A stretch of 64,000 nucleotides of DNA from positions 124,001 to 188,000 of the forward strand of contig NIVC01001867.1 in NCBI GenBank assembly GCA_002269645.1, given 5' to 3'. The notes under the pieces are model-generated. The model did no database searches, was not told the DNA's origin, and worked only from the letters and a program-made list of their open reading frames with translations. The translations under genes were made by a program, and so were the position numbers. Source of the DNA: Macrostomum lignano. Lineage: Eukaryota. This document shows, piece after piece, positions 22,781 through 58,282 of the stretch (positions within the stretch are counted from its first letter, which is position 1; each line of letters opens with the position of its first letter).

Positions 22781-22781
22781 A

Positions 22782-26918: not shown

Positions 26919-26933
26919 ATTTTTTATAAGAAA

Positions 26934-32263: not shown

Positions 32264-32273
32264 TTTTATATTG

Positions 32274-32684: not shown

Positions 32685-33127
32685 TTTTTGTTCTATTTTT
32701 AGTAACAGAAAAATTAAGTTGCAGACACTAAAGAAAAGGGTAGTGTGCAAGCATCTCGAGCGGTTTTATTTTATAGCTCTTTTTTACTCTTTTTTGTATA
32801 GAAAATAAAGAAGACGCAAACACAAAAGATTCTCTATCCAAAAATGAACCTATGGTTCGCGGGCTGTGCCCGATGGCACAAATGGCCTGCTCCGCTGGAG
32901 CACAATGGACGCTTTTTATTCGATGAATGGCCATTTTTCTCTCTGTCCTCGGTGCATTGTGTCTATAACAGCACATGAATTTTTCTCATAGCTTAGAAAA
33001 AATCATGTATACACTAAAAGAGTTTGGTGCACACACACACATGATTTTTTCTAAGCTATGAGAAAAATTCATGTATACACTAAAAAGATTGTCAGTTTAA
33101 TAGTTATGGAAATAGCACGCAAATTAT

Positions 33128-34014: not shown

Positions 34015-34485
34015 GATAATACGTTTGTTAGTTCTTGTAAAAGACAGATATTAGGAGTTGTGCATAAATAAGAGACTATTTGCTGTGGCTAGTTTTTTAG
34101 ATTTCATCATTCTTATACACACAATTAAAGCTTGGGGTGGAGTGCTGAAAATAATAAAAGCGCTTTTCATGAGTAAGCAACTCACCTTCCTGTTGTAGCC
34201 AGTTTGAGTCTGAGGTTTGCGCTTCGGTAAATGATGAGTATAATAGAAACCCCGAATTCCCGCGTTAGTCATTATACTGTCTGCGACCCTTTGGGGTGAT
34301 CATGCAAAGTTTTTCTTTTTGTGAGCTGCTTTAAGATAGTTAAACACTGTTCCTTTTCTATGACTCAGTTTGGGTCAGACTGTGCCCCTTCGCGCCTGCG
34401 GCGCGTGCGAGGGTTTATAGAGAATTTGAAGTGTTAGAAGTGTTGGGGTGTGTTGGAAGTGTTGGAAGTGTTGGAAGTGTTGGGT

Positions 34486-34765
34486 AGAGTAGTAGTAGGG
34501 AAAAAGACGCTTCTAGATCAGACCTTTTTTAATGGTCGTTTATAAGGTTCCAGAGGGGGGACACGAGGGGTGTGATAAGATGAGTTGGGGATGGGTTATA
34601 TTGATTTTTGGTATTAAGGGGTGTTGTGGGTGATTATGGGTGATTAGATGTGTTAAGGGTGTTTAGATGTGTTTTTTTATTTACCCCCCGTGTCCCCCCT
34701 CTAGACCCTTAAAACGGCTGTTAAAAAAGTGCTCTGGGTCTGGAAGCGTCTTTTTCCCTACTACT
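34486..34765 (-). repeat. Polinton-A right TIR
   Basis: Inverted copy of 15606-15885. Confidence 0.95.
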
Positions 34766-40562: not shown

Positions 40563-40915
40563 AGTAGTAGGTAAAACGACGCTTCTAGACCCAGAGCACT
40601 TTTTTAATGACCGTTTTAAGGGTCTAGAGGGGGGACACGGGGGGTAAATAAAAAAACACATCTAATCACCATTAACACAAAAAGACATCTAAAAACCCCC
40701 TAACAATAAAAATCATTCCCAACACTTCCAAACACTCCCCAACACTCCCCTCGTGTCCCCCCTCTGGAACCTTATAAACGGCCATTAAAAAAGGTCTGAT
40801 CTGTAAGCGTCGTTTTACCTACTACTACACAACCCAACACTCCCCAACACTTCTAACACTTCCAAATCTCTATAACCCCTCGCACGCGCCGCAGGCGCGA
40901 AGGGTCTTTTTCTGT
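40563..40915 (+). repeat. Polinton-B left TIR
   Basis: Reverse complement of 57930-58282. Confidence 0.95.
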
Positions 40916-41101
40916 AGTATGAAACTTCATACTAGCCCATTCATGAAGAGGAGGCATAATACCATATATGGTAGCGAGAGTTTCATTCATAAGTTATAAA
41001 TCGTCTCTTTTTCTTATACCACCCACTGTTCTATTATTCTACCCCAACCTATTGTGCTTCCACTTCGTCTCTTTTTTCTGTTACTAAAAATAGAACAAAA
41101 A

Positions 41102-41500
41102 ATGACACACGTTACTCATATGCAAAATCTGAACGAATTGCAGGTAGGAGACCCAGTTGAATACCGAGGTGAGGGGCTTTTTGATGTGGTTGGAACAGCA
41201 GCAAATTTTGTTAAAGACAATATGGGTCTTATAGGGCAAGCAGGCTCCGCAGCAGGCTCTATAACAAATGCTGTAAAAGGAGGAATTGAAGCAGCTAGAG
41301 CGGCAGAAGAACTAAAGAAATTGAGAGATTTTAACGACACCCTCTCACAAATAAATGCAATAAAAGATTTAAAGCTGGCACAAGCCGCACAACCAACAGA
41401 AACCCCCACGAAAACCACGCCAATAAGTAATAAAGATATTCAGGATTTTAATAAAATGTTAACCACAATTAAAGGCGGAAAAGGATTAAAGAAATTTTAA
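41102..41500 (+). CDS. Virion precursor with amphipathic segment
   Basis: Homolog of 32274-32684; AAAAATG start. Confidence 0.7.
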   Translation: MTHVTHMQNLNELQVGDPVEYRGEGLFDVVGTAANFVKDNMGLIGQAGSAAGSITNAVKGGIEAARAAEELKKLRDFNDTLSQINAIKDLKLAQAAQPTETPTKTTPISNKDIQDFNKMLTTIKGGKGLKKF

Positions 41501-41510
41501 CAATATAAAA

Positions 41511-42485
41511 ATGGACACAGATAACGACCGCTTATATTTTATAGGAGAAATTGTAGATACTTTAGATCTAGATGATAATAAACATAGCCACGCAATGTTA
41601 AAAAAATTGGATCGTTTAGGTAAAAAACTTGACTATGATATCGATACATTTAAACTTGCTGCCAAATATGCACAAGAAGGAAGGCCAATATCCTTTAAGA
41701 ATCGCGGTAGAAATTATAGGCTGACAGACTCCGATGTAAAATTTTTATTGGAGACTCATACTAAAAAAGACGGCGGATTGTTACCTATTTTACCAATTCT
41801 TTTAGGCCTCGGAGCAGCTGGAGCAGCCGGTTTAGCAGGTAAAAGAATTCATGATAACCGAAAACAGTTAGCAGAATTAAAAGCAAAACAGGGAGGCATA
41901 CTTCCACTTGCAACATTGTTACCAATAATTTTTGCAGGAATAGGAGCAGCTGGTGGAATAGCAGGTGGCGCAGCTGGAATCACAAAAGCAGTAAATGATA
42001 AAAAAGCTGCGGATGAAAAAGCTAAACGAGATGCTGAATTTCAAAGACAGCAAATAACACAGGACGCACAATTCAAACAGAAACTCATTGACACCATTAA
42101 TAGTAGTTCAGCAACAGCAGAGCAAAAAAGAAATGCAGAAGCTAGGTTAGCAGCCGGAAAAGGTTTACTGTTAAATGGCAGCGGTTTGGTACTAAAAGGA
42201 ACAACCCAAGGAAGTGGAGTTGTAGCAGATAAACTACAGGAATTTGGTCAAACTTTAGAAAAAACGGGTGAGAAAGCTAAAGGATTTTTTGACAATATTG
42301 GAGCTAATTTTAGGCCAGCAGTTCAGAAGATTTTTACTAAGTTAGGAAAAGATTTTAACATAATTGAAAAACACGACGGAAGCGGATTATATCTCGAAAT
42401 GAGACCAAAAGCAGGTTCAGGAATTTTCTTAAATTCAAATGTTATGGGCAATGGATTGCTATTACCAAAAGCAGATCTCGAATAG
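41511..42485 (+). CDS. Core/virion precursor with pX-like motifs (324 aa)
   Basis: DGGLLPILPILLG and QGGILPLATLLPIIFAGIG; repeated GxG-hydrophobic motifs. Confidence 0.65.
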   Translation: MDTDNDRLYFIGEIVDTLDLDDNKHSHAMLKKLDRLGKKLDYDIDTFKLAAKYAQEGRPISFKNRGRNYRLTDSDVKFLLETHTKKDGGLLPILPILLGLGAAGAAGLAGKRIHDNRKQLAELKAKQGGILPLATLLPIIFAGIGAAGGIAGGAAGITKAVNDKKAADEKAKRDAEFQRQQITQDAQFKQKLIDTINSSSATAEQKRNAEARLAAGKGLLLNGSGLVLKGTTQGSGVVADKLQEFGQTLEKTGEKAKGFFDNIGANFRPAVQKIFTKLGKDFNIIEKHDGSGLYLEMRPKAGSGIFLNSNVMGNGLLLPKADLE

Positions 42486-42569
42486 GCTCCTGGGGGGTGG
42501 GTCAGGACGCTAAAAACATAAAATTAAAAAACCAATAATTCAAATACTATATAAATTATATTCTATAAA

Positions 42570-45500
42570 ATGGAAGCAATTTTAGCTCAAATCGATAATC
42601 CCGAAATTAGAGCACAATTAATAGCTCAATTGGAATTAGAAAGAGCTAATATAGAAGCTAGAGTTAGGGCAGAAAATGAGATACGTTTAGAAAGACAATT
42701 AAATGATATTGATATCCCCCAATCACAAGGACAAAATGGAGCTGAAGTAATAGATATAGATATAGATATAAATACAAATTATAAAGAATATTTTAAACAA
42801 ATGAAAGATAAATTAAAGACCATATTAAACAATTATACTATAAGGCCAAATAACAAACGACAGCCAATTAAGTATAAAATAGAAGTTGAAACAGAATTTA
42901 AAAAACCAAATATTCTTAATGCAAATTCAGAAATTGAAGTAATAAATAACTTTTCACAAGAATCATATAAAACACTACTATCAATGGGAAATTACAATAA
43001 TCAATTTAATCAAATAGAAGCTGAGTTTGATGAATGGATAGATAAGATGACAGAAAACGGATCCGGGTTTATATTTGTATCCTGTAATTCAGCAATAGTA
43101 AAGATTGCACCCATAGAAATTCTTAAAGGACGATCACACATGAATCTTTACTTTAAATCACCAATGATCATAAATCCAGACAATAGAGATAATAAATGTT
43201 TATTATGGTGTTTATTAATTCATAAATATCACAATCAAGTAGAATCACATGTTAATAAAATATATAATTATAGACAATATGAGAATGAAATAATAATGAA
43301 AAACATATCATACCCAGTAGCAATAGATGATATATATAAGATTGAAAAAATGAATGGTTTAAATATTAATGTTTTTACAATTGAAGAACCAGAAGATCTA
43401 GAAGAAATTTCAACCGATCCAGAATGGTATAAGAAAAACTGTTATTTAGTAAAACCAGCAACTGATATAACTGCACCAGATCAAATCGATCTTTTGTACA
43501 TGCAGCGCGAAAATGAAACACATTATATATACATAAAAGATATTAGTTCTTTTTTAAGAGAAAATAGAAATAGATATCCACTATGTAGAAATTGTTTCAC
43601 ATTTAAAAAGGATGAAACAGCTCTTAAAAATCATCAACGATTTTGTTTAGATCACAAATTTACTAATGCTGTGATGCCAAATTCTGAAGATGCAACCTTA
43701 AAGTTCCAACAACATTATACAGCAATTAAAAAACCAATAGTAATATATGCTGATTTTGAAGCAACAAATGTTCCCTTAAAAGAATCACAGACAGTATCTG
43801 ATGGTGAATGCACAAAAAAATTAGCACAACAGTTTCCTAATAGTTATTGTATATATGTACACTCCGTAGCTGATCATATATTTAAATCAAGGATGATTAC
43901 TTACCACGGTAAGGATGCAGCAAAACACATGGCAGAATCATTAGTAAATGTATTTGAATATATTCAAATTCAATATGATAAATTATCAAAAAATATTATT
44001 ATGACAGATAAGGATAGAGACAATTATAAAAATGCAACAAATTGTTTTATGTGCAAAAGGTATTTAAGTAAGAAAAATAAGATACGAGAACATTGTCATC
44101 TAACGGGAATTTATCGAGGGGCAGCATGTAGATCATGTAATGCAAAAGAAGGAAAAGGATGTAAGGAAATACCAGTATTTTTTCATAATGGTTCCGGATA
44201 TGATTTTCATTTCTTAGTTCGAGAATTGCTTCATTTAGGAAAGGATGAATATGAAATAAATATATTACCTAAAACATCAGAAAATTACATATCAATAACA
44301 TATGGTAAGAAATACTCCCATCTAGTTTTTCTAGACTCCTTGAGATTCTTATCAACCTCCCTAGCGAATGTTGTTTCATCATTAGTTCCAAAACCATGGG
44401 ATTTAGAAATAGTAAAGAAAAACTTTCCAATACTATTGAATCGTTTCAAAAAAGAAAAACTATCCGAGGATGAACTAATGCTATTAACTCGCAAGGGCAT
44501 CTACCCATATGAATATGTAACATCTGAAAACGTATTTAGTGATACTCAACTACCCCCAATTGAAAAGTTTTATTCAACATTATCACAATCAAATATAAGT
44601 GAATCGGATTATGAACACGCTCAAAAAGTATGGAAATACTTTAATTGTAAAACATTTAAAGATTATCATGATCTATATCTTAAAGCAGATGTTCTCCTAT
44701 TAGCTGATGCATTTGAAAACTTTAGGAATCATACATATGAGAATTTTAAAATTGATCCCGCATATTGTTTCAGTGCACCGGGATTAACATGGGCTTGTGG
44801 TTTGAAACATACAGATGTTGAGATTGATTTACTAACTGATCATGATATGTTGTTAATGATTGAGAGAGGAATTCGCGGCGGATTCTCGGGTGTACTAGGA
44901 GATAGATATACTAAAGTAAATAATAAATATCTACCAAATTATAATAAAAAAGAAAAATCATCATATGTATTATATCTAGATGCAAACAATTTATACGGTG
45001 GTTGTATGAAACAAAAATTACCAATAGCTGATTTCCAATGGGAAGATGACCCCGATTATTACAAAAATATTCCCGAAGGAAGGGGTTGTATTGTAGAGGT
45101 GGATTTGCAATATACTCGGGAAGCAAAAGCAAAAACATATAAATATCCTTTAGCTCCAGAGCATTGTTCAGTTAATGAAAATGATTTATCACAAACACAA
45201 AAAGATTATCTTAAAGCAGATAATGCAAAACATCTAGCAACAAAAAAATTAATATTAAATTTACATGATAAGAAAAACTATGTAGTGCATTATAAGCTTC
45301 TACAATTTTATGAAAAGCAGGGATTAAAAGTGTCTAAAGTACATCGAACAATATCGTTTATTGAGGAAGATTGGTTAGCTAAATATATTGATTTTAATTC
45401 AAATCAGAGACAGATGTCAAAAACAAATTTTGAGAAAGATTATTGGAAATTAATGAATAATGCTTTTTATGGAAAAACGGTTGAAAATATTAGAGATAGA

Positions 45501-46478
45501 ACCCAATTCCATTTAGAAAAGGATATTGATAAAGCAAAGAAATATTTCTCAAAACCTAACTTTAAAGACTTTATAAAATTTGATGATAACTTTATGGGTA
45601 TTCATATGAGAAATAAAACAACAAAATTTCTTAAACCAATATTTATTGGAATGGTTGTTTTAGATTATGCAAAGCTAGTAATGTATGAATATTATTATGA
45701 TGTTATAAATAAAACATGGCCAGATAACTATCCAATATATGCAGACACTGACAGTTTGGTATTTAAGGTTGAAACACCGGATGTCTATAAAGATATGGAA
45801 AAAATTAAAGATACATTGGATACCTCCGACTATCCGGATAACCATCCCTTAAAATCAGATCAAAATAAAAAAGTTGTACTTAAAATGAAAGATGAATTAA
45901 ATAGCAAAATCATAACCGAGTTTATAGCAATAAGATCAAAATGCTATGCATTTAAAGTTTTAGGACAGGAGGGAGAGGTAAAAAAAATAAAAGGGGTATC
46001 AAGGGCAGCAGTTAAAAAGATAACATTTGATGATTATAAAAACGTACTTTTAGATTACCTTAATACAATTGAAAATTATCACGCTCCACAATATCGATTA
46101 AATTCAGAAAAGCATCAGATGTTTGTCATCGAGACAGATAAAAAAACATTAAGTCCATTTGATGATAAAAGGTATTTAGATGATAAAATTAAAACATTTC
46201 CATATGGTTTAAAAGAAGAGATAATAAACATGATAAAAGATAAAAAACAAAAAGAAGATATAATAAGCAAATATAAAGAATACAAAGAAGCAATAAATAA
46301 TTATTATTACGATTGTGATTGCGAATCCGAATGTGAATGTGAATATAATACATTTCTAGAATATAAAAAAGATATAGATAATTATTATGCAACATTTCCA
46401 AAAGAACTTAAAAAATTAAACAAGGAAAAAGTCTTGAATAACTGGAAGAGATTAACAGAAAAATTACTTATCGGATAA
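42570..46478 (+). CDS. polB: Protein-primed family B DNA polymerase (1302 aa, intact)
   Basis: Exo YADFEA, FHNGSGYD, YLKADV; Pol YLDANNLYG, KLMNNAFYGK, YADTDS; embedded EndoVII-like Zn finger CFMC...EHCHLTG.YRGAACRSCN. Confidence 0.97.
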   Translation: MEAILAQIDNPEIRAQLIAQLELERANIEARVRAENEIRLERQLNDIDIPQSQGQNGAEVIDIDIDINTNYKEYFKQMKDKLKTILNNYTIRPNNKRQPIKYKIEVETEFKKPNILNANSEIEVINNFSQESYKTLLSMGNYNNQFNQIEAEFDEWIDKMTENGSGFIFVSCNSAIVKIAPIEILKGRSHMNLYFKSPMIINPDNRDNKCLLWCLLIHKYHNQVESHVNKIYNYRQYENEIIMKNISYPVAIDDIYKIEKMNGLNINVFTIEEPEDLEEISTDPEWYKKNCYLVKPATDITAPDQIDLLYMQRENETHYIYIKDISSFLRENRNRYPLCRNCFTFKKDETALKNHQRFCLDHKFTNAVMPNSEDATLKFQQHYTAIKKPIVIYADFEATNVPLKESQTVSDGECTKKLAQQFPNSYCIYVHSVADHIFKSRMITYHGKDAAKHMAESLVNVFEYIQIQYDKLSKNIIMTDKDRDNYKNATNCFMCKRYLSKKNKIREHCHLTGIYRGAACRSCNAKEGKGCKEIPVFFHNGSGYDFHFLVRELLHLGKDEYEINILPKTSENYISITYGKKYSHLVFLDSLRFLSTSLANVVSSLVPKPWDLEIVKKNFPILLNRFKKEKLSEDELMLLTRKGIYPYEYVTSENVFSDTQLPPIEKFYSTLSQSNISESDYEHAQKVWKYFNCKTFKDYHDLYLKADVLLLADAFENFRNHTYENFKIDPAYCFSAPGLTWACGLKHTDVEIDLLTDHDMLLMIERGIRGGFSGVLGDRYTKVNNKYLPNYNKKEKSSYVLYLDANNLYGGCMKQKLPIADFQWEDDPDYYKNIPEGRGCIVEVDLQYTREAKAKTYKYPLAPEHCSVNENDLSQTQKDYLKADNAKHLATKKLILNLHDKKNYVVHYKLLQFYEKQGLKVSKVHRTISFIEEDWLAKYIDFNSNQRQMSKTNFEKDYWKLMNNAFYGKTVENIRDRTQFHLEKDIDKAKKYFSKPNFKDFIKFDDNFMGIHMRNKTTKFLKPIFIGMVVLDYAKLVMYEYYYDVINKTWPDNYPIYADTDSLVFKVETPDVYKDMEKIKDTLDTSDYPDNHPLKSDQNKKVVLKMKDELNSKIITEFIAIRSKCYAFKVLGQEGEVKKIKGVSRAAVKKITFDDYKNVLLDYLNTIENYHAPQYRLNSEKHQMFVIETDKKTLSPFDDKRYLDDKIKTFPYGLKEEIINMIKDKKQKEDIISKYKEYKEAINNYYYDCDCESECECEYNTFLEYKKDIDNYYATFPKELKKLNKEKVLNNWKRLTEKLLIG

Positions 46479-46823
46479 AATCCGCGACCCTTCGGGGCGG
46501 AAAAAAACTAAAGCATGTAATTGTTTAAGCATAATATCCATTTCCATTTCATATTTTATTGAGCACCAATTATCCTCACAGTCGGCAGGGTAACTTAAAC
46601 ATTCTTTTATTTTTTTCCTAAGTACTTTTATTCTTCTAACAAGACGATCAATTTCAATTTCAATTACTGTTTCTGCATAAGCAATTGCTTTTTGTATAAA
46701 ACGTTTTCTTTTATCTAATTTGTATCGGATGGGAAACATATCTTCATCATAATCACTATAAAATAAACTATTAATATAATTAAGTTCACGCTCTTTAGTG
46801 ATAAGGATTTTTATTGTCTCCAT
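46464..46823 (-). CDS. Polinton uncharacterised protein
   Basis: ORF track; homolog in A. Confidence 0.65.
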   Translation of the reverse strand: METIKILITKERELNYINSLFYSDYDEDMFPIRYKLDKRKRFIQKAIAYAETVIEIEIDRLVRRIKVLRKKIKECLSYPADCEDNWCSIKYEMEMDIMLKQLHALVFFRPEGSRILSDK

Positions 46824-46839
46824 TTTCTTATAAAAAAAT

Positions 46840-47171
46840 TTAGTCATCTTCGTCAGCCTCCCAAACCGAAGCCAATTTTACAGTCCTATCACACTTTTTA
46901 TTTTTTGGTTGTTTTAGTTTAAATTGCAACCCACCCTCCAGACTGTATTTCATAACAAACGCTTTTGGTTTATTAATAACTAAAACAGGAAAATTTTTAA
47001 CATCATCTCCGCTTAGACATAAAATTTTATGCCCATCCAATTGTAAAAATATCGATTGAAGTCCAATAAATTTAACCTGTCTCAAACATATAATATTATA
47101 TTCTTTATTCTCCAACATATTGGGGTGACATAATTAATCACATTAGAATCAGTTTTGAACCAGCTTTCCAT
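46840..47171 (-). CDS. Polinton uncharacterised beta-rich protein (1-nt frameshift near the start)
   Basis: Homolog of 26586-26918. Confidence 0.65.
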
Positions 47172-47197
47172 TTTTAATCTAAAAAAATAACAAAAAA

Positions 47198-47710
47198 ATG
47201 AAAGACATTTACGAATGTAAAAAATGTAACGTGACTATGCATAGAGCTCAAACAGCAAGCGGAGATATATATCATATGTGCTATTCATGTTCTAAAATAT
47301 ATCAATTTGAAAAAACAAAAAAGATTGAAAACTCATATTACTATTTTAAAAACACAATTTTAAGAAATCTTACAAGAGACATATCTGATCCAATTTTAAT
47401 TCCCGGAAATAATGTTTATTTATATAATAACTTTTTCCATTTAAATAAAGGAGTGGGATTAAGTTCGAAAGACTCCGAAAGGATTTTAATTTTAGTTGGA
47501 TATTATTTTAATTTTCTTATTCGAGAGAATACAAAGTTTATAAGGATAGGTAACATACCTAACGAAATGTTACTGAAAAAGTCGTTGGAATTTTTATGTA
47601 TTGATAAAAAATTTAAACCTAGGATTACAAGAGAATTACCACTTTGGGAAGAATATATAACGTATGCGTTAGAAAAACTAAACAACATTAAGTTCTACAC
47701 CACTACCTGA
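47198..47710 (+). CDS. Zn-ribbon protein (170 aa)
   Basis: CKKC...CYSC N-terminus. Confidence 0.7.
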   Translation: MKDIYECKKCNVTMHRAQTASGDIYHMCYSCSKIYQFEKTKKIENSYYYFKNTILRNLTRDISDPILIPGNNVYLYNNFFHLNKGVGLSSKDSERILILVGYYFNFLIRENTKFIRIGNIPNEMLLKKSLEFLCIDKKFKPRITRELPLWEEYITYALEKLNNIKFYTTT

Positions 47711-48333
47711 TCGCCGGCTTTGTACCCCAGTACCAATAGTTTCGGGTTCGTAAATACCTAATGTTTCTATAGGTGGAGCTTTGGGTTTATCGAGTCTCAA
47801 CTCTTTTAATTCCATATCGGTAAAAGTTTCAACATCTAAAATTCTATTTCGATCTTTTAAATATTTTTCGTATAATTCCACCGCGGTTGATAATTCATGA
47901 ATTGTTATCTCTCCGTCATCCAATATTTTTTGCACATATAAATATAACTGATTTTTATATTGTTTAGCAATATCTCTTAATGATTTATATTTATCCTTTC
48001 TTTTTTTAAGATATAATTTAATTGCTAAAAGTATTGATAAGTTTCTGATCATTTCAAAACCTGATATTGAGCCAATTGAAATACCTAAAAATAATTGAGA
48101 TAAATTAAGAGTTGGAATAGATTGTAAAATACCTAAAACGATTACACATAACATTGATAAGCTTCCAAATCCAATATTGAAAAAATCCATATTTCTGATA
48201 TGGTTTGAAACTCTTCTTACTTTTTTGGTATATAAATCATAATCATAGTTAATACGATCAACATTACTTAACATGTGACCTTGCGTTGGTTAAAATGGTC
48301 ACGTTCCCTTTTATCTGCTTCAGATACCGACAT
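47678..48333 (-). CDS. Two-TM membrane protein (frameshift near the start)
   Basis: Homolog of 25431-26084. Confidence 0.7.
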
Positions 48334-48644
48334 TTTCGTCTATTTTTAATAGCACCAAAATGAATTCCCGCGCTCTTTGGGTATTTGCCCGAGCTTAATA
48401 GGTATTGTATTGGAGTGATTCTTTCTTTTTTCTCCCATTTAAATCCAATTTTCCAAAACTCTTGAAGTATAATATGATTTTTTAATAGTTTAATTAATTC
48501 TTGAAGCTTCTTGTTATCCTGAACATTTACAGTACTAAATAAAAATTTGGTATGAGATTTGAATGTTTTTATATTTGATTCTTGTTTAGGAATAGGAATA
48601 ATAACATTATTTTGCCGCATTGATGGTGTTCTACTAAAAGCCAT
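48264..48644 (-). CDS. Polinton uncharacterised protein (frameshifted C-terminus)
   Basis: Homolog of 25118-25444. Confidence 0.65.
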   Translation of the reverse strand: MAFSRTPSMRQNNVIIPIPKQESNIKTFKSHTKFLFSTVNVQDNKKLQELIKLLKNHIILQEFWKIGFKWEKKERITPIQYLLSSGKYPKSAGIHFGAIKNRRKCRYLKQIKGNVTILTNARSHVK

Positions 48645-48659
48645 TTTATATATAAATAT

Positions 48660-50591
48660 TTAAGGTATTTCGGTTTGTGGCCGTTCCAAATATGCGGTCG
48701 CAGCAAAATCATATCCTGCTGATGTGCTACCACAAACGGCTGCACCACGAATAAAATGTGCAGCATCCGATCCTCCGGTTCGAGCACCAAAACCCATAAG
48801 TGTTCCCGTTTTATCTAAATCTCCCCAAGTTCCGCTATCATATGTAAAAAAGTTTTGCCCAATTAGCGTATATGTATTAGCTGATACATTGTATGTGCTT
48901 ATTTGATACCAAACTCTTTGATTTAAAATATTAATTTCAAAAAGATGCCAATCGCCGTTATCAATATTAGCATAGGTTATAGTTTGATCTGCGTCATTAA
49001 GAACATCATTACGAACTGTTGCTCCGTCTGATTTTATATTGCTCCAAACAACCCCAACTCTATCATGCCATTCACTCGCAAACACAATCAAGCCGGCGCG
49101 GGTTGTTAACCCGGATCCAAATTCACTTGTTGGACGTTCGTGACAATATGCATAAAACCAAACCGCATCAGCACCACTTCCTGTAGCATTAGCAACTCGG
49201 AAATAGAAGGAGGCGGAGATATTACGAAAATGGGTGAAATTAAATTGCAACGCTCCAGACTGACCACTTGCTTCATCAGTAATTCTAGCACCATTTTGAT
49301 AATCAATATAAGTAGCGTTACCAACAAAACTTCCTGTTGGAAAAATATCGCCGGCGGTGGTTGGGTTTTGATATCCAGTCCAATTGCAAATTACAGGCTC
49401 GTACAAAGCGGCATCGATTGCAGGTATTCCATCCAATTTTATTTTATCGTTAAAAGACATTCGGCCATCCGCCGTTTGTGTTACTCGCGTATCAACATAA
49501 CCTTTAGTAACAACAGAACTGTTATTGTTTATAGTAGAGATATTAGTAATTGTATTACCTCCCATATCAATTGATTGATTAACCACTCCCAAATTTAAAT
49601 CAAGAATTGTAAACGTCTGTCTATAAATCTGGAAGGTTGACAGACCCGGGTTGGTTGAACCCGAGGTTGATGTAAGACAGAACAATCTGAAATATGAATA
49701 TGTTTTATCAAAATTTTGTGTGACATTAATTGTTTGAGTTGAGTTATTTATTGCTACAGAACTATCCGCAGGTATTAATACGTCCCAACTTGTATTGTCA
49801 TTACTTCCCTCAAATCGCCATGATGCTGGGTGCTCGGTTGAAGGTGATGGCCTACCACGTAAATCAATTTTATAACACATTATTGCGGAAGGGCATTGGA
49901 CTTGAATCCAATAATCGGTTTGAGTATTATTTGTTGCCCAATCTGTTGAATCATTTCCATCAAACGCTTTCCAACTTGCAAAATCAGTTGTATTAAATGC
50001 AGTGCTTGCGGTTATTGCAAAACCATTTCCACTCCAATCTGCCATGGTAGGTACGTGTCCGGTTTCAACCGTTTGGAATCGATCCTGCTTTAAGGCTCCA
50101 CCTCCAACTAAATTATCAACTTCGGTTTTGGTATAGGAATCAGTTATATCTCTTTTTAAATTTAGGGAATTATCAACTTCAGTTTTGGTATAGGAATCAG
50201 CAACATTCCGTTTTAAATTTAGGGAATTATCAACTTCGGTTTTGGTATAAGAATCGGCCGTATTGCGTTTTAAATTTAATGAATCATCTATTTGAGTTCG
50301 AGAATAAGAATCAGTTATATCTCTTTTTAAATTTAACCCATTGTCAACCTCTGTTTTTGTATATGAATCGGCTACGTTCCGTTTTAAATTTAGGGAATTA
50401 TCTATTTGAGTTTTGGTATAGGAATCTGCAACATTTCTTTTTAAATTTAGTTTAGTATCAACTTCACTTTTTTTATAACCTTCATCTTCATTAATATATC
50501 GGTTATCTCCGAATGTAACACTTATTCCACCAGAAGTACCACCACCAGTACTTGATGTTCCGTTCCATGAGGGTGTTCCAGAAAATAACAT
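48660..50591 (-). CDS. Fibre/receptor-binding protein (643 aa): 19-aa shaft repeats, F5/8C discoidin-like domain, L-lectin-like C-terminus
   Basis: ~7 YTKTEVDNSLNLKRNVADS repeats; AWKAFDG..STDW..WIQVQ...PASWRFEGSND; GADAVWF lectin-like motif. Confidence 0.8.
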   Translation of the reverse strand: MLFSGTPSWNGTSSTGGGTSGGISVTFGDNRYINEDEGYKKSEVDTKLNLKRNVADSYTKTQIDNSLNLKRNVADSYTKTEVDNGLNLKRDITDSYSRTQIDDSLNLKRNTADSYTKTEVDNSLNLKRNVADSYTKTEVDNSLNLKRDITDSYTKTEVDNLVGGGALKQDRFQTVETGHVPTMADWSGNGFAITASTAFNTTDFASWKAFDGNDSTDWATNNTQTDYWIQVQCPSAIMCYKIDLRGRPSPSTEHPASWRFEGSNDNTSWDVLIPADSSVAINNSTQTINVTQNFDKTYSYFRLFCLTSTSGSTNPGLSTFQIYRQTFTILDLNLGVVNQSIDMGGNTITNISTINNNSSVVTKGYVDTRVTQTADGRMSFNDKIKLDGIPAIDAALYEPVICNWTGYQNPTTAGDIFPTGSFVGNATYIDYQNGARITDEASGQSGALQFNFTHFRNISASFYFRVANATGSGADAVWFYAYCHERPTSEFGSGLTTRAGLIVFASEWHDRVGVVWSNIKSDGATVRNDVLNDADQTITYANIDNGDWHLFEINILNQRVWYQISTYNVSANTYTLIGQNFFTYDSGTWGDLDKTGTLMGFGARTGGSDAAHFIRGAAVCGSTSAGYDFAATAYLERPQTEIP

Positions 50592-50658
50592 TTTTTACTG
50601 TCTATTTTATAGAGTCTAAAATCGCCCCGTAGGGTCGCGGACTCCGTCCGATCGAACC

Positions 50659-51099
50659 TTAGGTTCGCATGCTTTGCATGATCATCTTAAATACTTCGGG
50701 GGTTTCCTTCGAGTTATTAATTTTATATAAAAAATACAACGCAGCCTGTCCGCAATAACTTTTATCAAAGGTTTGAAACTGTTCGTGATAATCTCCACAT
50801 AAACGATTTTTAGTATGATTAAATTTGTCTTTTATTTCCTGTAACGGAGGAAGCGCGTATGAATCAAAAAAATAAACAAGTTTTGGTTTTGAATAAACTG
50901 CTGACCAATGAACACCATTTTCTTTTGTTGTTTCAATATTAACAATGAAAGATCCATATCTTGGTAAGTCTTTTATCTCATCCCGCATAACACATCTGAA
51001 TGGTTTTAATTTTAACTGCCTCGCCCAATTTGTTAATTCGATATTGCTTGTTGTGTCTGTTCCATATCTTTGTTTGAACAACTGCCAATTCATGGTCAT
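50659..51099 (-). CDS. Adenain-like cysteine protease
   Basis: GVHW/FFDSY/QTFDKSYCG; last residues derive from a hairpin-element insertion. Confidence 0.92.
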   Translation of the reverse strand: MTMNWQLFKQRYGTDTTSNIELTNWARQLKLKPFRCVMRDEIKDLPRYGSFIVNIETTKENGVHWSAVYSKPKLVYFFDSYALPPLQEIKDKFNHTKNRLCGDYHEQFQTFDKSYCGQAALYFLYKINNSKETPEVFKMIMQSMRT

Positions 51100-51100
51100 T

Positions 51101-51274
51101 TTATGTTCCTGAAAAACTCTTGGTTTTAGTTAGTTTCGTAGGTGTGGGTTTTAATAGTTCCTTTCGGATTTTTTCTGCTTGTAATTGTTTCAATTTTGTT
51201 AGTTCGATTTCATAATTATCCTTTGCGTTTTGAACTTTTTCCGTTTGTTTTTTTAAAGCATTGTTGTTACCCAT
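51101..51274 (-). CDS. Small MG-starting coiled-coil protein (57 aa, below the ORF-track cutoff)
   Basis: MGNNNALKKQTEKVQNAKDNYEIELTKLKQLQAEKIRKELLKPTPTKLTKTKSFSGT; homolog of 22571-22780. Confidence 0.7.
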   Translation of the reverse strand: MGNNNALKKQTEKVQNAKDNYEIELTKLKQLQAEKIRKELLKPTPTKLTKTKSFSGT

Positions 51275-51284
51275 TTTTACAGTA

Positions 51285-52070
51285 CTAAACCTGTTTTATA
51301 CGTAAAATTATTGTTATTGACTGCCCACCAAAACTTATTAATCTATCGCTTTCATCTACGATCCTAATATAAATTGATTGAACGCTATATTGATTTAAAG
51401 GATAATATATTGGGGTTTGGGGTGCAACAATCATTTTCTCTCCAATTGGAACAGCAAGAAACGGGATTGAATAAATAATTCCACGTTGAACCAAAACTCC
51501 GTTATCGTCTGTTATATAACCACCGTTTGAAATGTCGGTTGTTATATTAATTGTATTTACTCCACCCTCTATATTTCCAACTGTATCACCGGTGCTTGAT
51601 GTGGTAACTATTCGGGAATTAAATCCAAGTATGGTTCTGAGTGAATTTGCAATTGTGAAATCAACCTGATATCCGGATTCGAGTGATAGTGTGAATCTTC
51701 CAGACGGTAAATCAACACCTATAACAATTGCTCCTGCTACCCAATCTCCATTAGCTGTTAATTCTCCTTCTATATAAGCATTCAAATCAGTATAGCTATA
51801 CGCACCCGGGCTAACACTAAATGTTGTCCAATTGGCTCCGGAATCTTTAGAATATCTAAATTGATTATTTGTTGCATTAATTAATTGAGGCATGTTAAAA
51901 ACCGAAAATAATATCAAACCAATTTGATAACTTAGGCTTTGATCAAGTTGTAATGGATCGCGCAATTGAATCCGTTGCTCGCTGGTTGTCATTATAAACT
52001 GTAATGTTGTACTAAATTTTGAATTAGTTCGATCTACCAATTGTTTTATAGTATTTAAATTTGTAGTCAT
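51285..52070 (-). CDS. Minor capsid protein (penton)
   Basis: Near-identical to 21775-22560. Confidence 0.75.
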   Translation of the reverse strand: MTTNLNTIKQLVDRTNSKFSTTLQFIMTTSEQRIQLRDPLQLDQSLSYQIGLILFSVFNMPQLINATNNQFRYSKDSGANWTTFSVSPGAYSYTDLNAYIEGELTANGDWVAGAIVIGVDLPSGRFTLSLESGYQVDFTIANSLRTILGFNSRIVTTSSTGDTVGNIEGGVNTINITTDISNGGYITDDNGVLVQRGIIYSIPFLAVPIGEKMIVAPQTPIYYPLNQYSVQSIYIRIVDESDRLISFGGQSITIILRIKQV

Positions 52071-52104
52071 TTTTATAGTGGGGAAATCGTGCCATAGGCA
52101 CGAA

Positions 52105-52896
52105 CTAAGTCTCTTCTTCCTCATTATCTTCTTTTATCAGATCTCTTAAGATTCGATTTTTCCTTTCTAACCTAGGGTTGATATATATATGTTTGTATTG
52201 GCTATCTTCCCAAATTTTTTTACACAAGCTTTTAAATGGTTTTGTATCCAATCCAGGATTAAATCTAGCGTGTATATTTTGTAAATCATAATTATCTAAA
52301 TCAAACATTACACAACAACTTGCATTCTTTTTTATAATCGATTCTAATTCTCTAAAGGACTGTGTTAGATAAAAAGCTCCGATTCCATCTCCTCTACCAC
52401 TAACAAAAATTTCCTTTTGCAATTCTTGATCACCGTCATTAATACAATCATCAAAAATAATTAGTGTTTTATCATTTTTTGGAATTTGATCATAGCCTAA
52501 TCGGGTTGATACTCTAACAGTTGGGGCTCGTTCGGTGATGTTTTCTGGTTCGAACCTTTGTTCGCGGACTCGTCCGACCTTCTGCCATTTTTTACATAAA
52601 TCCTCAATGTCATCGAGTGTAAATCGCGGTTCGTCATCATCCTCATATTGCTCATATGCTCTTAACATTCTAAACAAGACATCTTTTTTTAATTTGTTTT
52701 TTAATCCATGTTTAAGAAATTCATAATATTTTATTCTAGGTTTATTAGTATAAATTATTAAATTATTATAGTCTAGCATTCCATCGGTTGTTAACAGGTC
52801 ATAAACAAAGTGTGTTTTTCCTTTACCCGACCCACCAATTACTAAACAAAGAAAAGGATCATTTGGAAATATTTTATTGTGTTTTGCTTTTACCAT
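52105..52896 (-). CDS. DNA packaging ATPase
   Basis: GGSGKGKT, LIIFDD. Confidence 0.92.
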   Translation of the reverse strand: MVKAKHNKIFPNDPFLCLVIGGSGKGKTHFVYDLLTTDGMLDYNNLIIYTNKPRIKYYEFLKHGLKNKLKKDVLFRMLRAYEQYEDDDEPRFTLDDIEDLCKKWQKVGRVREQRFEPENITERAPTVRVSTRLGYDQIPKNDKTLIIFDDCINDGDQELQKEIFVSGRGDGIGAFYLTQSFRELESIIKKNASCCVMFDLDNYDLQNIHARFNPGLDTKPFKSLCKKIWEDSQYKHIYINPRLERKNRILRDLIKEDNEEEET

Positions 52897-52948
52897 TTTT
52901 TAAGTAAATAATTTAAAGTGGGGCGACGGTCGGAGACCTGCACTCATT

Positions 52949-54420
52949 TTACAATGGTGCGTCTCGAACAACCGTGCCATCAGCTTTAGCAATTGACAAA
53001 TATTCCTCTAGAAACAATACGTGGGCGTCGATTGCTGATTACCGGTTTTATTAATCTCTAACATATAATTAAGTCCAATATTGGCTATGTTTTCTTTCTG
53101 TGCCGTTAGATCATAAACAACCACTGGATGGATGTTTAGAAACTCTGTGGGTGTATACTGAGGGACGGCATATGCTTCATTTTTGGCATAATCGTGATAA
53201 TATTTTATAAAATCATTAACATCATTATTTGCAATATTTAGATTAAGAGGATCTTTAACCGGATAATATTGATCATCAACCTGCAGGCGGATATTCTGAA
53301 CATTAAACTCGTTAATTGCAGCAACTGCGTTGTCTGTTGCGGTAGCTGCTTGTGCTGCTATGTCACCCGATTGAAGCCAATATAAATCCCCATTTGCTCT
53401 TTTACTCCTTCTGTTTGTTATCTTAAACCAAACAAAAATATATCTCACCCGACGTTTTGATGTCAATATTTGCCACTGGAATGAATCCTGATTGTTATTA
53501 ATGGTTCGCATAAAGTGTCTACGATTCAAATAAAATATTTCCTGATCATGCGTTAACTGATTATCGATGTGTTTTAAAAGTGGGGCTGTTACCTCAATAG
53601 TTGGTACGACTAATTGAATTGAATCTATACGAACTGCTATATCGGTTGAAATTGAGGTTCCATAAAGTATCCTAGGCTGATATCCACCAGATATTTGCAA
53701 CTGTATCCCAAATTTTAATCCTTTCCATACCCGATTTGGTGAGAAAAACCCAAATAGTGGAAAGATTGAAAAGTCCTGCTCATATGCTGTTGCTGTGGTT
53801 AAAACCGCGACTGGGAATTTATTCTGACGATCTATAAAACCAGTATTAATATCTTTTGTATTAGTCATAGTGGTTACAACTGGAACTATGTTTGTATTAA
53901 GGTAAACAATTAGCGCTGCAGTATCTGCACCGGCTGCGTTTTGTACATTAGGGAAAACTACTGCTTGACCGTTACCTTTATCCGGCATCCACCCAACATT
54001 ATCACCAACTTGTTTTGATAAATAAGTATAATTTAAATGTTTCAAAACTCCATTAATCTCTGCGGGGTTTGATGATGTCTCAACCTCAGCACCATTAACA
54101 GTTAGTTGAGCTTGGGAAAAGCATTTATAAAACCAATCATTTTCAATTATTATTCCGGATCGATCTGCGATATCTCCGGCTGCAAGAGCAGTTCCATCAT
54201 TTCTAGTATACAACCATCTAACGCGGAAAAACGCATTTTTCATATCCAATATAGTGTTGGTTGCGCCGATGTCAAAAGTTACCGTTCCAGTAGTAAAGTT
54301 ATTTGAATTATCACTTGTTGGTAGGGTATAATTTAAATCTCTTGCTCTGACCTCATTAATATACTGTCGGTGCTTTTTGAAATGAAATTTATCACTCCAC
54401 ATAGTTTTTGTTTCAGCCAT
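52949..54420 (-). CDS. Major capsid protein (frameshift ~53030)
   Basis: Near-identical to element A MCP; the two copies break at different places. Confidence 0.8.
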
Positions 54421-54454
54421 TTTTTTAAGTTAAAAAAGTTTTTTATGTTAAAAA

Positions 54455-55141
54455 ATGAGTCAATTTATGGACGTTGATGGAGAGTTAGCGATTTATAAAG
54501 AGAAGCAAAGATATTCTGATTTTGTTAGAAATTTACAAAAAAGAAAGTTAGGAATACAATTAGCGGGTGAAAGATTTGCTGCTCCTTTTGTTAATCCTAT
54601 TACTGGGAAAATTAGTGAACTAGAAAAAACAGATAAAGATCTTCTGGAAAAAATTGCTAAAAATACTGAGCCAAAAGAGGATGAACTTTTAGATGAGCCG
54701 CCTGCTTATGATGTTGATCTAGCACAATTGAGAATTGCAGAGATTAGACGTGCAGAGATTAGGGCTGCAGAAAGGGGTGAAGAAGTTAAACAATTTCCAA
54801 GAGATGCGCCACGTAGTATTGCTGCGACAGATTTAGGTAATAATTATCGAATTGGTAACGTTGATAAAGATCGAAATGAACTATATAGAGAATTGGGCGG
54901 AGCATATAGAATTATTACTAACCCTAGGGTTAAGTTTAACCCTGATTTTTATACTAGGGATGAATTAGTAAGTGCTAAAATTTTTTATGATGATTTAGGA
55001 GTAGGAGCTGTTAAAAATACCAACTTGTATAAAAGGATTGTTGATTCTATAAATAACAAGCCGGCTGTTGGTGAAGGATTTAAAACTCCGCGAAAACTTG
55101 TTTTAGCTGCCGCGAAAGCTGCTGGACATACTGGTGTTTAA
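54455..55141 (+). CDS. Conserved Polinton uncharacterised protein (228 aa)
   Basis: Homolog of 18648-19319. Confidence 0.8.
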   Translation: MSQFMDVDGELAIYKEKQRYSDFVRNLQKRKLGIQLAGERFAAPFVNPITGKISELEKTDKDLLEKIAKNTEPKEDELLDEPPAYDVDLAQLRIAEIRRAEIRAAERGEEVKQFPRDAPRSIAATDLGNNYRIGNVDKDRNELYRELGGAYRIITNPRVKFNPDFYTRDELVSAKIFYDDLGVGAVKNTNLYKRIVDSINNKPAVGEGFKTPRKLVLAAAKAAGHTGV

Positions 55142-55168
55142 TTAATTGTTAAATTTATTTTTTATAAA

Positions 55169-55768
55169 ATGGAAACTAAAAAGATTTGTAGTCGATGTAA
55201 AGAAGAGAAACCAATGACTAAAGATTTTTTTAGATGGAGAAATGATTCAAAAAAATTTAGAAATGATTGTCGATCTTGTGAGAAAGTTATATCAAAACTG
55301 TGGAATAAAAACAATAAAGAATATATAAAAAATAAATATCACACTGATGAAAATTACAAACTTATTATCACCTCACGAAATAGAATAAATCAACTATTAA
55401 AATCAAATAATGCTCGAAAAAATAATCATACTATTGATTACCTTGGTTGCTCAATTGAATTCTTTATTGATTGGTTAAATTTCACAAAACATTATTATGT
55501 TCCAAAAGACTATGGTGGTGCTTTACATATTGATCATTTTATTCCTGCTTCTTCATTTAATTACAAAGACGAAGATCATATGAAAAAGTCTGAACATTGG
55601 ACAAATAAAAGATACTTAGCTGCTATTGATAATAAAACTAAATTTGTTAAACAACCAACAATTGAAGAATTTGCAAAACAATTGGTGCTATCATGTATTT
55701 TTAAGGCTATAAAAAATGAGCAATCATGCGACGCATGCGAACCGAAGGTTCGACCAATTAGTATTTGA
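55169..55768 (+). CDS. HNH/His-Me-finger endonuclease-like protein with N-terminal Zn finger, element-B specific
   Basis: CSRC...CRSC; YLGCS...LHIDHFIPASSF...HWTNKRYL...N resembles HNH nucleases common in large DNA viruses; absent from A. Confidence 0.75.
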   Translation: METKKICSRCKEEKPMTKDFFRWRNDSKKFRNDCRSCEKVISKLWNKNNKEYIKNKYHTDENYKLIITSRNRINQLLKSNNARKNNHTIDYLGCSIEFFIDWLNFTKHYYVPKDYGGALHIDHFIPASSFNYKDEDHMKKSEHWTNKRYLAAIDNKTKFVKQPTIEEFAKQLVLSCIFKAIKNEQSCDACEPKVRPISI

Positions 55769-57356
55769 AGGAGGATTGTTAGATGTTCAAAAAGGATTAA
55801 CAAGCTTACCGAGCGTTTTTACTACTGGGAGGTATACAAATGAATTACACATCCCGTCTTACAACTTCGCAGGTTAACCAGTGGCCTGAGTGAGGAAGGC
55901 AATGTCCTTGCTAGTCACTATTTGTGGCGACATCTTCAAATTGCGTGAAACCCGTCATACAGCTTCAAGTACCACTTCAATTGAGAAATCTTTTGAAGGA
56001 ACAGAGGTAACTCCTCTTCCCAACGGTAACAAGCTTGAAGACACGGTGGCAATGCGCAGCCAAGCTCCTAAGTATTTTAAATATAAGGAGAAGGTTCAGA
56101 GAGCAGACGGAGATGGGCGGTAATCATCGCCGCTTAAGGTGTGCTCCAGCCTCATTCGAAAGATTGAGGGTAAACTGCCGGGGACTCGCTTAGATTTGAG
56201 ATTAAATCCTGACAATACTCCAAAATCTGATTCAATTCCAATAAATGGTATTGACTGGTTAGCATATTACCATGACTTAGCATACAGAGATGCTGACAAG
56301 AACCCGCCCGAGGAAGCATTAAGATTAAAACATGATGCCGATCAAAAAATGATTCAAGGATTAGATAACTTGCAGGGATTATCGGTAGGGCAAAGATTAA
56401 CTAGGTGGATGGTTAAAAAGATCTTGCAGTCTAAAGTTAAATTTGGTTTGGGAATTAATTACAACCAACATGGAAATAATTGTGTCGAGTGTTTATTATT
56501 AAGTGGTGGTGGGTTAAGTTCTGATGAGGCAAAGATTCTTCATAAAGAATATCGAAAACCGAAATTTTATAGAAAAATCATGAACTTCAAAAAGAATGAA
56601 ATTTGGTATGCTGATTTAATGTCGATGCCAAATGATAATGGATATAAATATATCTTAACAATATTAGATGGTTTTACTCGCTACGCGTGGGCTGTTCCTT
56701 TAAAATCCAAAAAGGGAGAGGAGGTTGCTGCTGCTTTTAGAAGTCTTGGAGAAAAAAGTGACCGGTTGTGTGTTGATGAGGGAAAAGAATTTTACAATCC
56801 TCATATGTATAAATTATATCATTTTGAAAAAGGACAAGAAAGGAAAAAAGACGCGAATGGGGAGTATATTAATAAAATTTATTCTATTTATGGAGAAAGT
56901 AAAAACGCATTAATAGAAAGATTTAATCGAACTTTAGGTAAGAAATTGTGGTTTCAGTTTAGTCTTAATGGTAACCAAAAGTGGGTAAAAATATTACCAG
57001 ACGTTGTGAAAGATTATAATAACTCATATCATTCAGCTATCGTTCCTTCGGAACGCGGACTTCGTACGATAAAGATGACTCCTCAACAAGCTTATAACAA
57101 TCCTGAAAACGTTAAAGTTACTTTTGGAAAATTTGAAAAAAATAAAAAGAAATCTTTTAAGGTTGGTGATTCTGTTTATATCTATAAATGGAAAGATAAG
57201 TTTGAAAAAGGAAGAAAAGGATATTGGAAGATAAGTGAGAAATTTACTATCAGTAAAGTTTTAAATACCAATCCTACAACCTATATAATTGCTGATAAGG
57301 ACGGTGAAGAAATATTGGGTTCTTTTTATGAGAACCAGATAATGTCTGCGAACTAA
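55716..57356 (+). CDS. PLA2-DDE integrase fusion (445 aa after splicing; exon 1 55716-55874, exon 2 56178-57356)
   Basis: Removing 55875-56177 gives in-frame ELHIPSYNFAG-PGTRLDLRL...YYHDLAY followed by integrase D-D-E motifs. Confidence 0.9.
55875..56177 (+). ncRNA. Group I intron (303 nt, IC1-like, ORF-less), element B
   Basis: U at 5' splice site, terminal G; P1 CAGGU/GCCUG(55884-88); P3 55931-37/56109-15; P4 UGCGUG(55942-47)/UGCGCA(56053-58); P7 GAGCA(56101-05)/UGCUC(56142-46); P-like AAAUUGCGUGAA, Q-like AAUGCGCAGC, R-like GUUCAGAGAGCA, S-like UUAAGGUGUGCUCC. Confidence 0.9.
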
Positions 57357-57366
57357 GTTCAAACAG

Positions 57367-57591
57367 TTACTTAAGACAACATGGTAGTAAATTTTTTATT
57401 ACAAACAAAAACAATATTATTACTATTATTGTTACTAATATTATTATTGACATTTGTTCAACTGTTATCAAACTTAAATTTTCATTAAGTTCATTAATTG
57501 GAACATTTCCGATGTAGGAATAGTTTACCTTCATTTTTTTATATATATTTTTCATAATAAATGTTGTTTCTGTTATAGAATAATAATTCAT
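57367..57591 (-). CDS. Small TM protein (74 aa)
   Basis: Homolog of 16269-16523. Confidence 0.8.
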   Translation of the reverse strand: MNYYSITETTFIMKNIYKKMKVNYSYIGNVPINELNENLSLITVEQMSIIILVTIIVIILFLFVIKNLLPCCLK

Positions 57592-57606
57592 TTTTTAAAT
57601 ATTTTT

Positions 57607-57921
57607 TTACATAAAAATTTCAATTTCATTCTCAGAATCACTGGTTTCATATGAGCTATTTGTTGATTCGGAATCTGTTGATCTAACCTCCCAATCATCC
57701 GAATTTAAATAATCTCCAAGTTGAAATATTAACTCTCCCTCTTGTTCTAATTCATACATCTCATCTAGCTCTAATGGATAAAGCTTTAGGTCATGCTTGT
57801 CGTCATATTTTAAATAAACTTCATCAATTATTCCATTCAAAATATGTTGTTTTATTATCTCTGCATTTTTAGCAACAGTCTCAAAAGTATCACTAACAGA
57901 AAAGGTGTAAACTCGGGTCAT
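57607..57921 (-). CDS. Small acidic protein (104 aa)
   Basis: Homolog of 15938-16252. Confidence 0.8.
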   Translation of the reverse strand: MTRVYTFSVSDTFETVAKNAEIIKQHILNGIIDEVYLKYDDKHDLKLYPLELDEMYELEQEGELIFQLGDYLNSDDWEVRSTDSESTNSSYETSDSENEIEIFM

Positions 57922-57929
57922 TTTTAGTA

Positions 57930-58282
57930 ACAGAAAAAGCCCCTTCGCGCCTGCGGCGCGTGCGAGGGGTTATAGAGATTTGGAAGTGTTAGAAGTGTTG
58001 GGGAGTGTTGGGTTGTGTAGTAGTAGGTAAAACGACGCTTACAGATCAGACCTTTTTTAATGGCCGTTTATAAGGTTCCAGAGGGGGGACACGAGGGGAG
58101 TGTTGGGGAGTGTTTGGAAGTGTTGGGAATGATTTTTATTGTTAGGGGGTTTTTAGATGTCTTTTTGTGTTAATGGTGATTAGATGTGTTTTTTTATTTA
58201 CCCCCCGTGTCCCCCCTCTAGACCCTTAAAACGGTCATTAAAAAAGTGCTCTGGGTCTAGAAGCGTCGTTTTACCTACTACT
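57930..58282 (-). repeat. Polinton-B right TIR
   Basis: Inverted copy of 40563-40915. Confidence 0.95.

Follow-up and report, generated by a model that had tools for sequence, protein, structure and literature searches.

The 303-nt insert at positions 55875-56177 of the window (the whole 64-kb stretch of DNA analysed here) is almost certainly a genuine group I intron, and its setting, the PLA2-integrase gene of a Polinton, is new. We consider it likely, moreover, that the intron is part of a homing system founded on restriction without modification, in which it probably confers immunity to, and spreads together with, the restriction enzyme of its own Polinton family; both the splicing of the intron and the cutting by the enzyme are predictions from sequence.

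Boundaries and structure of the intron

The interrupted gene comprises the following features:

55716..55874, forward strand: exon 1 of the PLA2-integrase gene; 53 codons, the last for the Ca-loop Gly of PLA2; overlaps the end of an HNH-like ORF
55875..56177, forward strand: intron B, an IC1-type group I intron without an ORF; P7 non-canonical yet fully paired; terminal G in the window copy
56178..57356, forward strand: exon 2 of the PLA2-integrase gene; remaining PLA2 domain and rve integrase, 392 aa

The last base of exon 1 is a U (55874), the final base of the insert is a G, and exon 2 begins at 56178. The insert separates the Gly and Pro of the PLA2 loop. Its removal joins exons of 159 and 1179 nt, which add up to 445 codons, in agreement with the single 445-aa frame claimed in the earlier note. 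In uninterrupted alleles of the same genome, the PLA2 motif is continuous at the insertion point, and PF08398 was matched on one of these (L104). A spliceosomal intron was rejected, since no GT/GC-AG pair near the junctions gives the 303-nt boundaries or the conserved motif; the description of an insert that starts after U, ends in G and lacks GT-AG ends was borne out.

The claim of a group I intron with these coordinates and helices also held when it was checked, as the earlier note had proposed, against the Rfam model RF00028, which was matched over its full length with 65.9 bits (E 1.7e-14; match 55865-56168; gathering score, 50 bits). This was the sole gathering-level match within the 64-kb window. 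P1 consists of 5 bp (55870-55874 with 55884-55888) with a U-G pair at the splice site, and all of the other helices pair, i.e., P2, P2.1, P3 (7 bp), P4, P5a/b/c, P6a/b, P7, P8, P9.0 and a GAAA-capped P9. The core includes P3/P7 with the G-C guanosine-binding pair, P4-P6 and the P5abc extension. Among 12 cores (seven B-type, three from a second Polinton family and two metagenomic; related sequences, not independent), compensatory two-sided changes were observed in P3, P4, P5a-c, P7 and P9. The folding energy of intron B is weak (z -1.67, with 5 of 100 shuffles equally good), and the case for a group I intron therefore rests on the covariance model and the compensatory changes. No endonuclease ORF was found inside intron B.

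The host elements and their genome

The window contains two Polintons of the same family, together with a nuclease ORF adjacent to the interrupted gene:

40563..58282, forward strand: Polinton element B, 17,720 nt; 353-nt TIRs, 6-bp TSD, pPolB, ATPase, major and minor capsid, protease-like ORF; no GGNCC
15606..34765, reverse strand: Polinton element A, of B's family, 19,160 nt; inside a Gypsy LTR, polymerase in pieces, 6-bp TSD; no GGNCC
55169..55768, forward strand: free-standing HNH/EndoVII-like ORF, 199 aa; lies ahead of exon 1, in the variable nuclease slot

Element B matched the Pfam families of the rve integrase (PF00665) and the A32 packaging ATPase (PF04665), while its capsid was assigned via a protein of the second Polinton family, which is 23% identical to it and matches PF21738. 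The motifs of protein-primed PolB were read by eye in a 1302-aa ORF, in which Pfam matched only the EndoVII insert. This EndoVII/HNH-like insert (residues 487-538 of pPolB, 42570-46478) is of a kind described for some nematode and oomycete Polintons. The HNH-like ORF at 55169..55768 is the neighbour of intron B, in a position occupied in other copies by a restriction endonuclease (REase). It shares 34% identity with an ORF that the group I intron of metagenome locus L083 contains, also adjoins intron-less copies and may be a second homing enzyme.

Other parts of the window were also of note. A 643-aa ORF (48660-50591), which combines 19-aa repeats with an F5/8 type C domain and ends in a lectin-like part, is likely a fibre protein and is split and diverged in element A. 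Element A has a near-perfect 37-bp hairpin (32974-33073) ahead of a 224-aa ORF that is missing from B. The Gypsy LTR retrotransposon (11520-15394), in whose 3' LTR element A is located, retains a long open gag-pol.

The claim of a Polinton in an animal nuclear genome stands on the TIRs, the 6-bp TSD and the integrase, ATPase and capsid, and on the host genes of the assembly. The genome measures 764 Mb. One of its contigs (C506) bears Wnt exons together with a B-type copy, and 18 matches to troponin, a protein not known outside bilaterians, were obtained. Intron B is thus a nuclear copy in a probably bilaterian animal. A search for mir-2 gave no match among 60 scored of about 110,000 candidates. 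Two further loci (L102 and L103), considered as Polinton sequence, were rejected as host DNA.

Copies and intron types at the Gly-Pro site

Intron B is one of dozens of copies in the genome. The identity of the junction region was 91-100% in all 40 scored matches of 194 candidates, although some loci are repeated in the assembly and the counts are rough. Among 113 scored PLA2-integrase matches, 18 were uninterrupted, 89 began at the PGT after the junction and 6 began later; intron-less alleles, for which the earlier note had suggested a search, are accordingly present. RF00028 matched all 12 of the B-type and second-family copies tested and none of 3 intron-less copies.

The homologous splice site of element A carries an insert of a different type:

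17685..18010, reverse strand: A-type insert, 326 nt; different core; P3, P4, P7 and P9 pair fully; shares P2/P2.1/P5abc with B

We take the A-type core to be IE-like, judging by eye from its motifs. No match to RF00028 was obtained in 4 of 4 A-type loci tested, nor on metagenome loci L080 and L082; all of these were called group I from paired helices and motifs only. The cores of introns A and B differ, and P2, P2.1 and P5abc are common to both (119 of 154 nt, including one exact 46-nt block; 55875-56045 versus 18010-17840). These common peripheral parts suggest that ribozyme classes have exchanged domains. With the homologous splice site, A-type exon 2 is out of frame by two bases in 24 of 24 copies (17685-18010 in the window; L031-L054). 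Despite this offset, the codons after the junction preserve the protein motif while differing by synonymous changes, and pairing of the guide strand with exon 2 is strongest at a point further downstream (-12.9 versus -7.2 kcal/mol). Another 3' site, a second processing step or the loss of PLA2 may account for the offset. P8 of the A-type intron of L054 is enlarged by an unrelated insertion of 835 nt.

In the second Polinton family, the introns occupy a site identical to that of B. They are 880-891 nt long and canonical IC1, with 82.6-88.9 bits (6 of 6) and a core ∼80% identical to that of B. The family (L106, L107) has another gene order, with PLA2-integrase at one end, and a Prim-Pol ORF. 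In metagenomes, four of six pattern matches were introns at the G|PGT site (two confirmed by Rfam), and the remaining two were due to chance. The ORFs of these four introns encode the same REase as in the Polintons of this genome (L085), an HNH (L083) and GIY-YIG enzymes (L080 and L082). In viral contigs, no relatives of exon 2 were found; among 16 integrase-type loci obtained by alignment, the 6 scanned with Rfam contained no intron, and searches with the junction patterns yielded 1 and 9 matches, each of which proved on inspection to be due to chance. The N-termini of six public protein predictions (P0129, P0007, P0003, P0012, P0027 and P0128) read through an IC1 core into the PGT motif, and the tails of 3 of 9 REase homologues (P0139, P0141 and P0146) read into an IC1 core. 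These read-through proteins argue that the intron occurs in the Polintons of other hosts as well.

Absence of GGNCC

Any pair of codons for Gly-Pro spells GGNCC, and the intron is located between the two codons. In elements B and A, 0 and 0 GGNCC were counted, versus 21.1 and 22.8 expected from dinucleotides and 11.2 and 13.8 from a Markov model, and GGNCC is the most depleted of 256 such words in element B. In 25 kb of flanking host DNA, 79 were counted (79.6 expected). Some host stretches are GGNCC-poor (3 versus 10.7, 3 versus 9.5, 9 versus 17 and 5 versus 16) and one is rich (35 versus 22); none has zero. Shuffling of codon order gave a mean of 14.7 GGNCC, with a minimum of 3 in 500 shuffles. 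Synonymous shuffles with the proteins fixed gave an expectation of 4.5, and 4 of 500 reached zero, so that much of the purge took place at the amino-acid level. Gly-Pro dipeptides number 0, versus 9.4 expected, in 18 ORFs of element B.

Two 9.9-kb stretches of the second family are likewise devoid of GGNCC (0 versus 11.5 and 0 versus 9.9). Over 69 loci, the total was 12 versus 215 expected; six of the 12 lie in the foreign insertion of L054, three at empty insertion points and three elsewhere. All five of the intron-less copies read (L061, L077, L078, L104 and L105) bear GGNCC exactly at the insertion point, and L077 and L078 have a second one ∼730 nt upstream, inside or outside the element. 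In some uninterrupted homologues (P0009, P0015, P0026 and P0138), the Gly-Pro-Gly of the loop is replaced (Gly-Ala in 4 of 63 motifs counted), possibly as a second escape from GGNCC.

The Eco47II-like restriction endonuclease and the proposed mechanism

Beside the intron of element A lies a REase ORF:

18117..18620, reverse strand: Eco47II-like PD-(D/E)XK restriction-endonuclease ORF, 167 aa, free-standing

In the second Polinton family, a REase ORF 58-66% identical to this one was found inside the P2.1 loop of the intron in all 6 loci read. RE_Eco47II (PF09553) was matched by 88 of 94 aligned homologues, and Atlas neighbours agree; the protein of element A alone scored 19.1 bits, below the 25.9 Pfam cut-off. 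Its predicted model (pLDDT 95) consists of one REase-fold domain of 167 aa, to which no DNA-binding part has been added. The best full-length structural match was EcoO109I (TM 0.69; Z 8.6, rmsd 4.1, 164 aligned), with AvaII next among restriction enzymes; the sites of both contain a GGNCC core. The D/E/K catalytic residues are retained, and dN/dS was 0.15-0.25 in 4 of 4 measurable pairs. An Eco47II homologue is linked to GGNCC in PMC10305163. Taken with the purge of the same word, these features suggest that the enzyme has a short recognition site and cuts GGNCC.

A cognate C5 methylase was sought beside the REase: PF00145 matched on 9 contigs, none of them among the listed Polinton contigs, and none was found in the scanned element ORFs. 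A giant-virus relative of the REase (L117:8001-9393) adjoins a C5 methylase; that contig has 30 GGNCC versus 107 and 40 GANTC versus 104 expected. Of the 18 uninterrupted copies, none adjoins the REase, against 37 of the 89 interrupted ones (Fisher p 2.5e-4, for copies that are not independent). In many copies a free REase is next to an ORF-less intron, never beside an empty site. The upstream slot swaps HNH variants and REase freely between both intron types, and the notion of one nuclease per intron type was rejected.

According to the mechanism that we propose, the intron is removed from the PLA2-integrase RNA and forms part of a selfish intron-plus-nuclease system of the Polintons. Many copies would encode a type II REase of the Eco47II/Sau96I kind, directed at GGNCC, in the intron or just upstream of it and without a methylase. 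The elements would protect themselves through the loss of every GGNCC but one, that of the Gly-Pro in the PLA2 calcium loop; there, the intron would interrupt the last GGNCC in the DNA and the RNA would regain the site. An intron-less Polinton would then be cut essentially once, at the insertion site, and either destroyed or repaired from an intron-bearing copy (homing), whereas the intron-bearing copies would be immune to the REase. The purge and the intron together would turn a 5-bp cutter into a homing enzyme, and intron B would be an ORF-less derivative that has kept the immunity. Since a 5-bp cutter would cut the unpurged host genome, some control is needed; the REase would act during extrachromosomal replication or co-infection and not from the integrated copy. 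The simplest guess as to how host DNA is spared is that the enzyme is silent when integrated and acts in replication, as for chlorovirus enzymes. On balance, we lean towards a new self/non-self system in animal-integrated viruses, in which a bacterial-type, methylase-free 5-bp REase, rendered harmless to the carrier by genome-wide site loss and a self-splicing ribozyme over one protein-fixed site, would serve both for homing and as a weapon of rival exclusion.

The intron could instead have arrived by ordinary homing at a conserved motif, for which the PLA2 loop would be a good target; the REase-like ORF would then have a long target, as I-Ssp6803I does, and the purge would be due to a host nuclease or to one from another virus. 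The identical site is indeed occupied elsewhere by introns that contain HNH or GIY-YIG ORFs, and in L082 the intron at G|PGT is accompanied by no purge (8 GGNCC versus 9.9), from which it follows that the site attracts introns without the REase. Outside the loop, too, Gly-Pro is rare in 120 public homologues, whatever their REase status (17 versus 77). The small single-domain enzyme, however, lacks the added DNA-binding part, the purged word is exactly the site of the Eco47II family, and the REase is absent beside all 18 uninterrupted copies. Ordinary homing is, on this evidence, unlikely, and the restriction-based system is preferred.

Splicing and gene expression

The functional state of the intron bears on a further alternative, i.e., that the B-type intron is a decaying, non-splicing relic, kept only as a block of GGNCC at the DNA level, with PLA2 borrowed from intron-less or second-family copies. 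P7 and P8 are altered relative to the canonical relative, P8 being short, the folding score is weak as described above, and the window copy has a P10 mismatch. The terminal base of B-type introns is G in 15 and A in 20 of 35 copies read, the G-binding pair being unchanged in the A-ending copies. The two reversed pairs of P7, however, are changed on both sides. Furthermore, both PLA2 halves are under purifying selection, A-ending copies included. Over the 57 PLA2 codons with which exon 2 opens, ahead of an internal ATG at 56349, dN was 0.007-0.038 versus a dS of 0.27-0.82 (dN/dS ∼0.03-0.07) in 8 of 8 pairs of intron-bearing copies; exon 1 gave dN/dS of 0.15-0.34 in 6 of 7 pairs, and the value of 1.4 for the remaining pair (L005/L020) was a frameshift artefact. 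An A-ending group I intron is, moreover, described as splicing in vivo in coral mitochondria (PMC6545197). A relic is thus quite improbable. The A-ending copies (window position 56177; L005-L030, L055 and L060) occur on several exon-2 and P9 backgrounds, and A is the majority letter at 56177 in 3 of 4 sequencing runs mapped.

The intact core, the covariation and the selection on the downstream PLA2 half suggest that the ribozyme is active. Since the PLA2 codons after the intron are under purifying selection in intron-bearing copies, splicing appears to be needed, and we infer that the PLA2-integrase RNA is spliced in vivo; the selection on exon 2 could partly predate the arrival of the intron. 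The stretch is contained in 19 of 22 sequencing runs, none of them recorded as RNA. Contigs of four runs (three guessed to be RNA, one unlabelled) showed 7 joints, none at 55874-56178, besides 129 loose ends; the commonest exon-1 variants map poorly there, and one contig crosses the 3' junction unspliced, a pattern neutral with regard to splicing. Many copies may not yield PLA2, given that 20 of 35 B-type introns end in A and that exon 2 is out of frame in all of the A-type copies.

The earlier note had further regarded the ribozyme as a gate on the expression of both PLA2 and integrase. Its interpretation stands with respect to the group I intron, the Polinton PLA2-integrase gene and the animal nuclear setting; the regulatory role is not supported. 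PLA2 requires splicing, but the ATG at 56349 opens a 335-aa ORF containing the whole integrase, with an upstream context like that of the other ORF starts of the element, and the gate is therefore trivially true for PLA2 alone, the integrase having a possible start of its own. The production of PLA2 does depend on splicing, and the weak 3' ends could lower output, but with intron-less alleles (18 of 113 scored copies) and three interchangeable intron types at the site, a regulatory gate is highly improbable. The evidence points instead to a likely role for the intron at the DNA level, in which it would break the only unavoidable GGNCC of the element, the likely target of the REase.

Comparison with known systems

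The homing endonucleases of mobile introns have long recognition sites (14-40 bp). Those of the PD-(D/E)XK type, such as I-Ssp6803I, combine a restriction-enzyme fold and a location in a group I intron with long targets; the specificity of the Polinton REase, in contrast, seems to come from the purging of a 5-bp site. PacI is a bacterial restriction endonuclease (8-bp site, HNH fold) without a methylase, whose host lacks its site. It resembles the Polinton REase in restricting without modification through site absence, but involves no intron and no homing. Introns or inteins have reportedly been studied in the polymerase genes of coral Polintons. In the open-access literature, no account was found of a group I intron in an animal Polinton, nor of any intron that masks a restriction site; the word 'intron' is absent from the coral polintovirus paper (PMC11131425), and the adintovirus paper (PMC8502044) makes no relevant mention of introns. 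A PD-(D/E)XK homing endonuclease family is mentioned in PMC3943268.

According to the relevant part of a review (PMC3679873), nuclear group I introns occur exclusively in rRNA genes of microorganisms, and their endonucleases are all of the His-Cys box type. The protist and fungal rDNA IC1/IE introns treated there (Tetrahymena type) resemble intron B in the IC1 core, P2, P2.1, P5abc, the U-G of P1 and P9.0; intron B, however, interrupts a protein-coding gene, and this gene is part of a virus-like element integrated in an animal genome. The introns of protist Polinton-like viruses (PMC12220804) likewise match RF00028, measure ∼300-380 nt and occur in small DJR-capsid elements, but they are reported as confined to a few protist groups, their host gene is unannotated, and the pertinent sections of that paper describe no endonuclease or site purge.

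Short-site type II REases are also found in other eukaryotic DNA viruses, the chloroviruses and marseilleviruses (PMC7019647, 10.1101/2019.12.21.884833), for which degradation of host DNA or exclusion of co-infecting viruses has been proposed; the chloroviruses, like the Polintons here, have group I introns in protein genes. Their REases are paired with neighbouring methylases, whereas the Polintons have none, and self-protection appears to consist of site loss plus the intron. In collaborative homing (2009, as cited in PMC11296320), the endonuclease gene likewise occurs both free beside an ORF-less intron and inside the intron. The Polinton case differs in its eukaryotic host, in an enzyme that is a short-site restriction enzyme and in the loose linkage to the upstream slot. 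Finally, the hexacoral mitochondrial ND5-717 intron (PMC6545197) is an animal group I intron that ends in A and splices, but it is described there as mitochondrial, obligatory and vertically inherited.

Significance

In the relevant part of a 2025 database (PMC11835236), animal group I introns are recorded only from placozoans, corals and sponges, and most of them are mitochondrial. Here, dozens of copies lie in a protein gene on the chromosomes of a probable bilaterian. The proposed immunity to a nuclease would give a testable reason for the retention of the intron, and the proposed steps in the origin of a mobile intron (an enzyme on its own, one next to an ORF-less intron and one within the intron) would be present in one genome. 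A very small (∼160 aa) GGNCC endonuclease is predicted, along with new natural ribozymes, A-ending ones included. If the proposal is true, working group I ribozymes, some ending in A, would operate in bilaterian messenger RNA. Indirectly, the system also suggests that animal Polintons compete with one another as viruses that replicate; if the proposal is true, these Polintons would pass through a replicative phase during which the DNA of the host or of rivals is cut.
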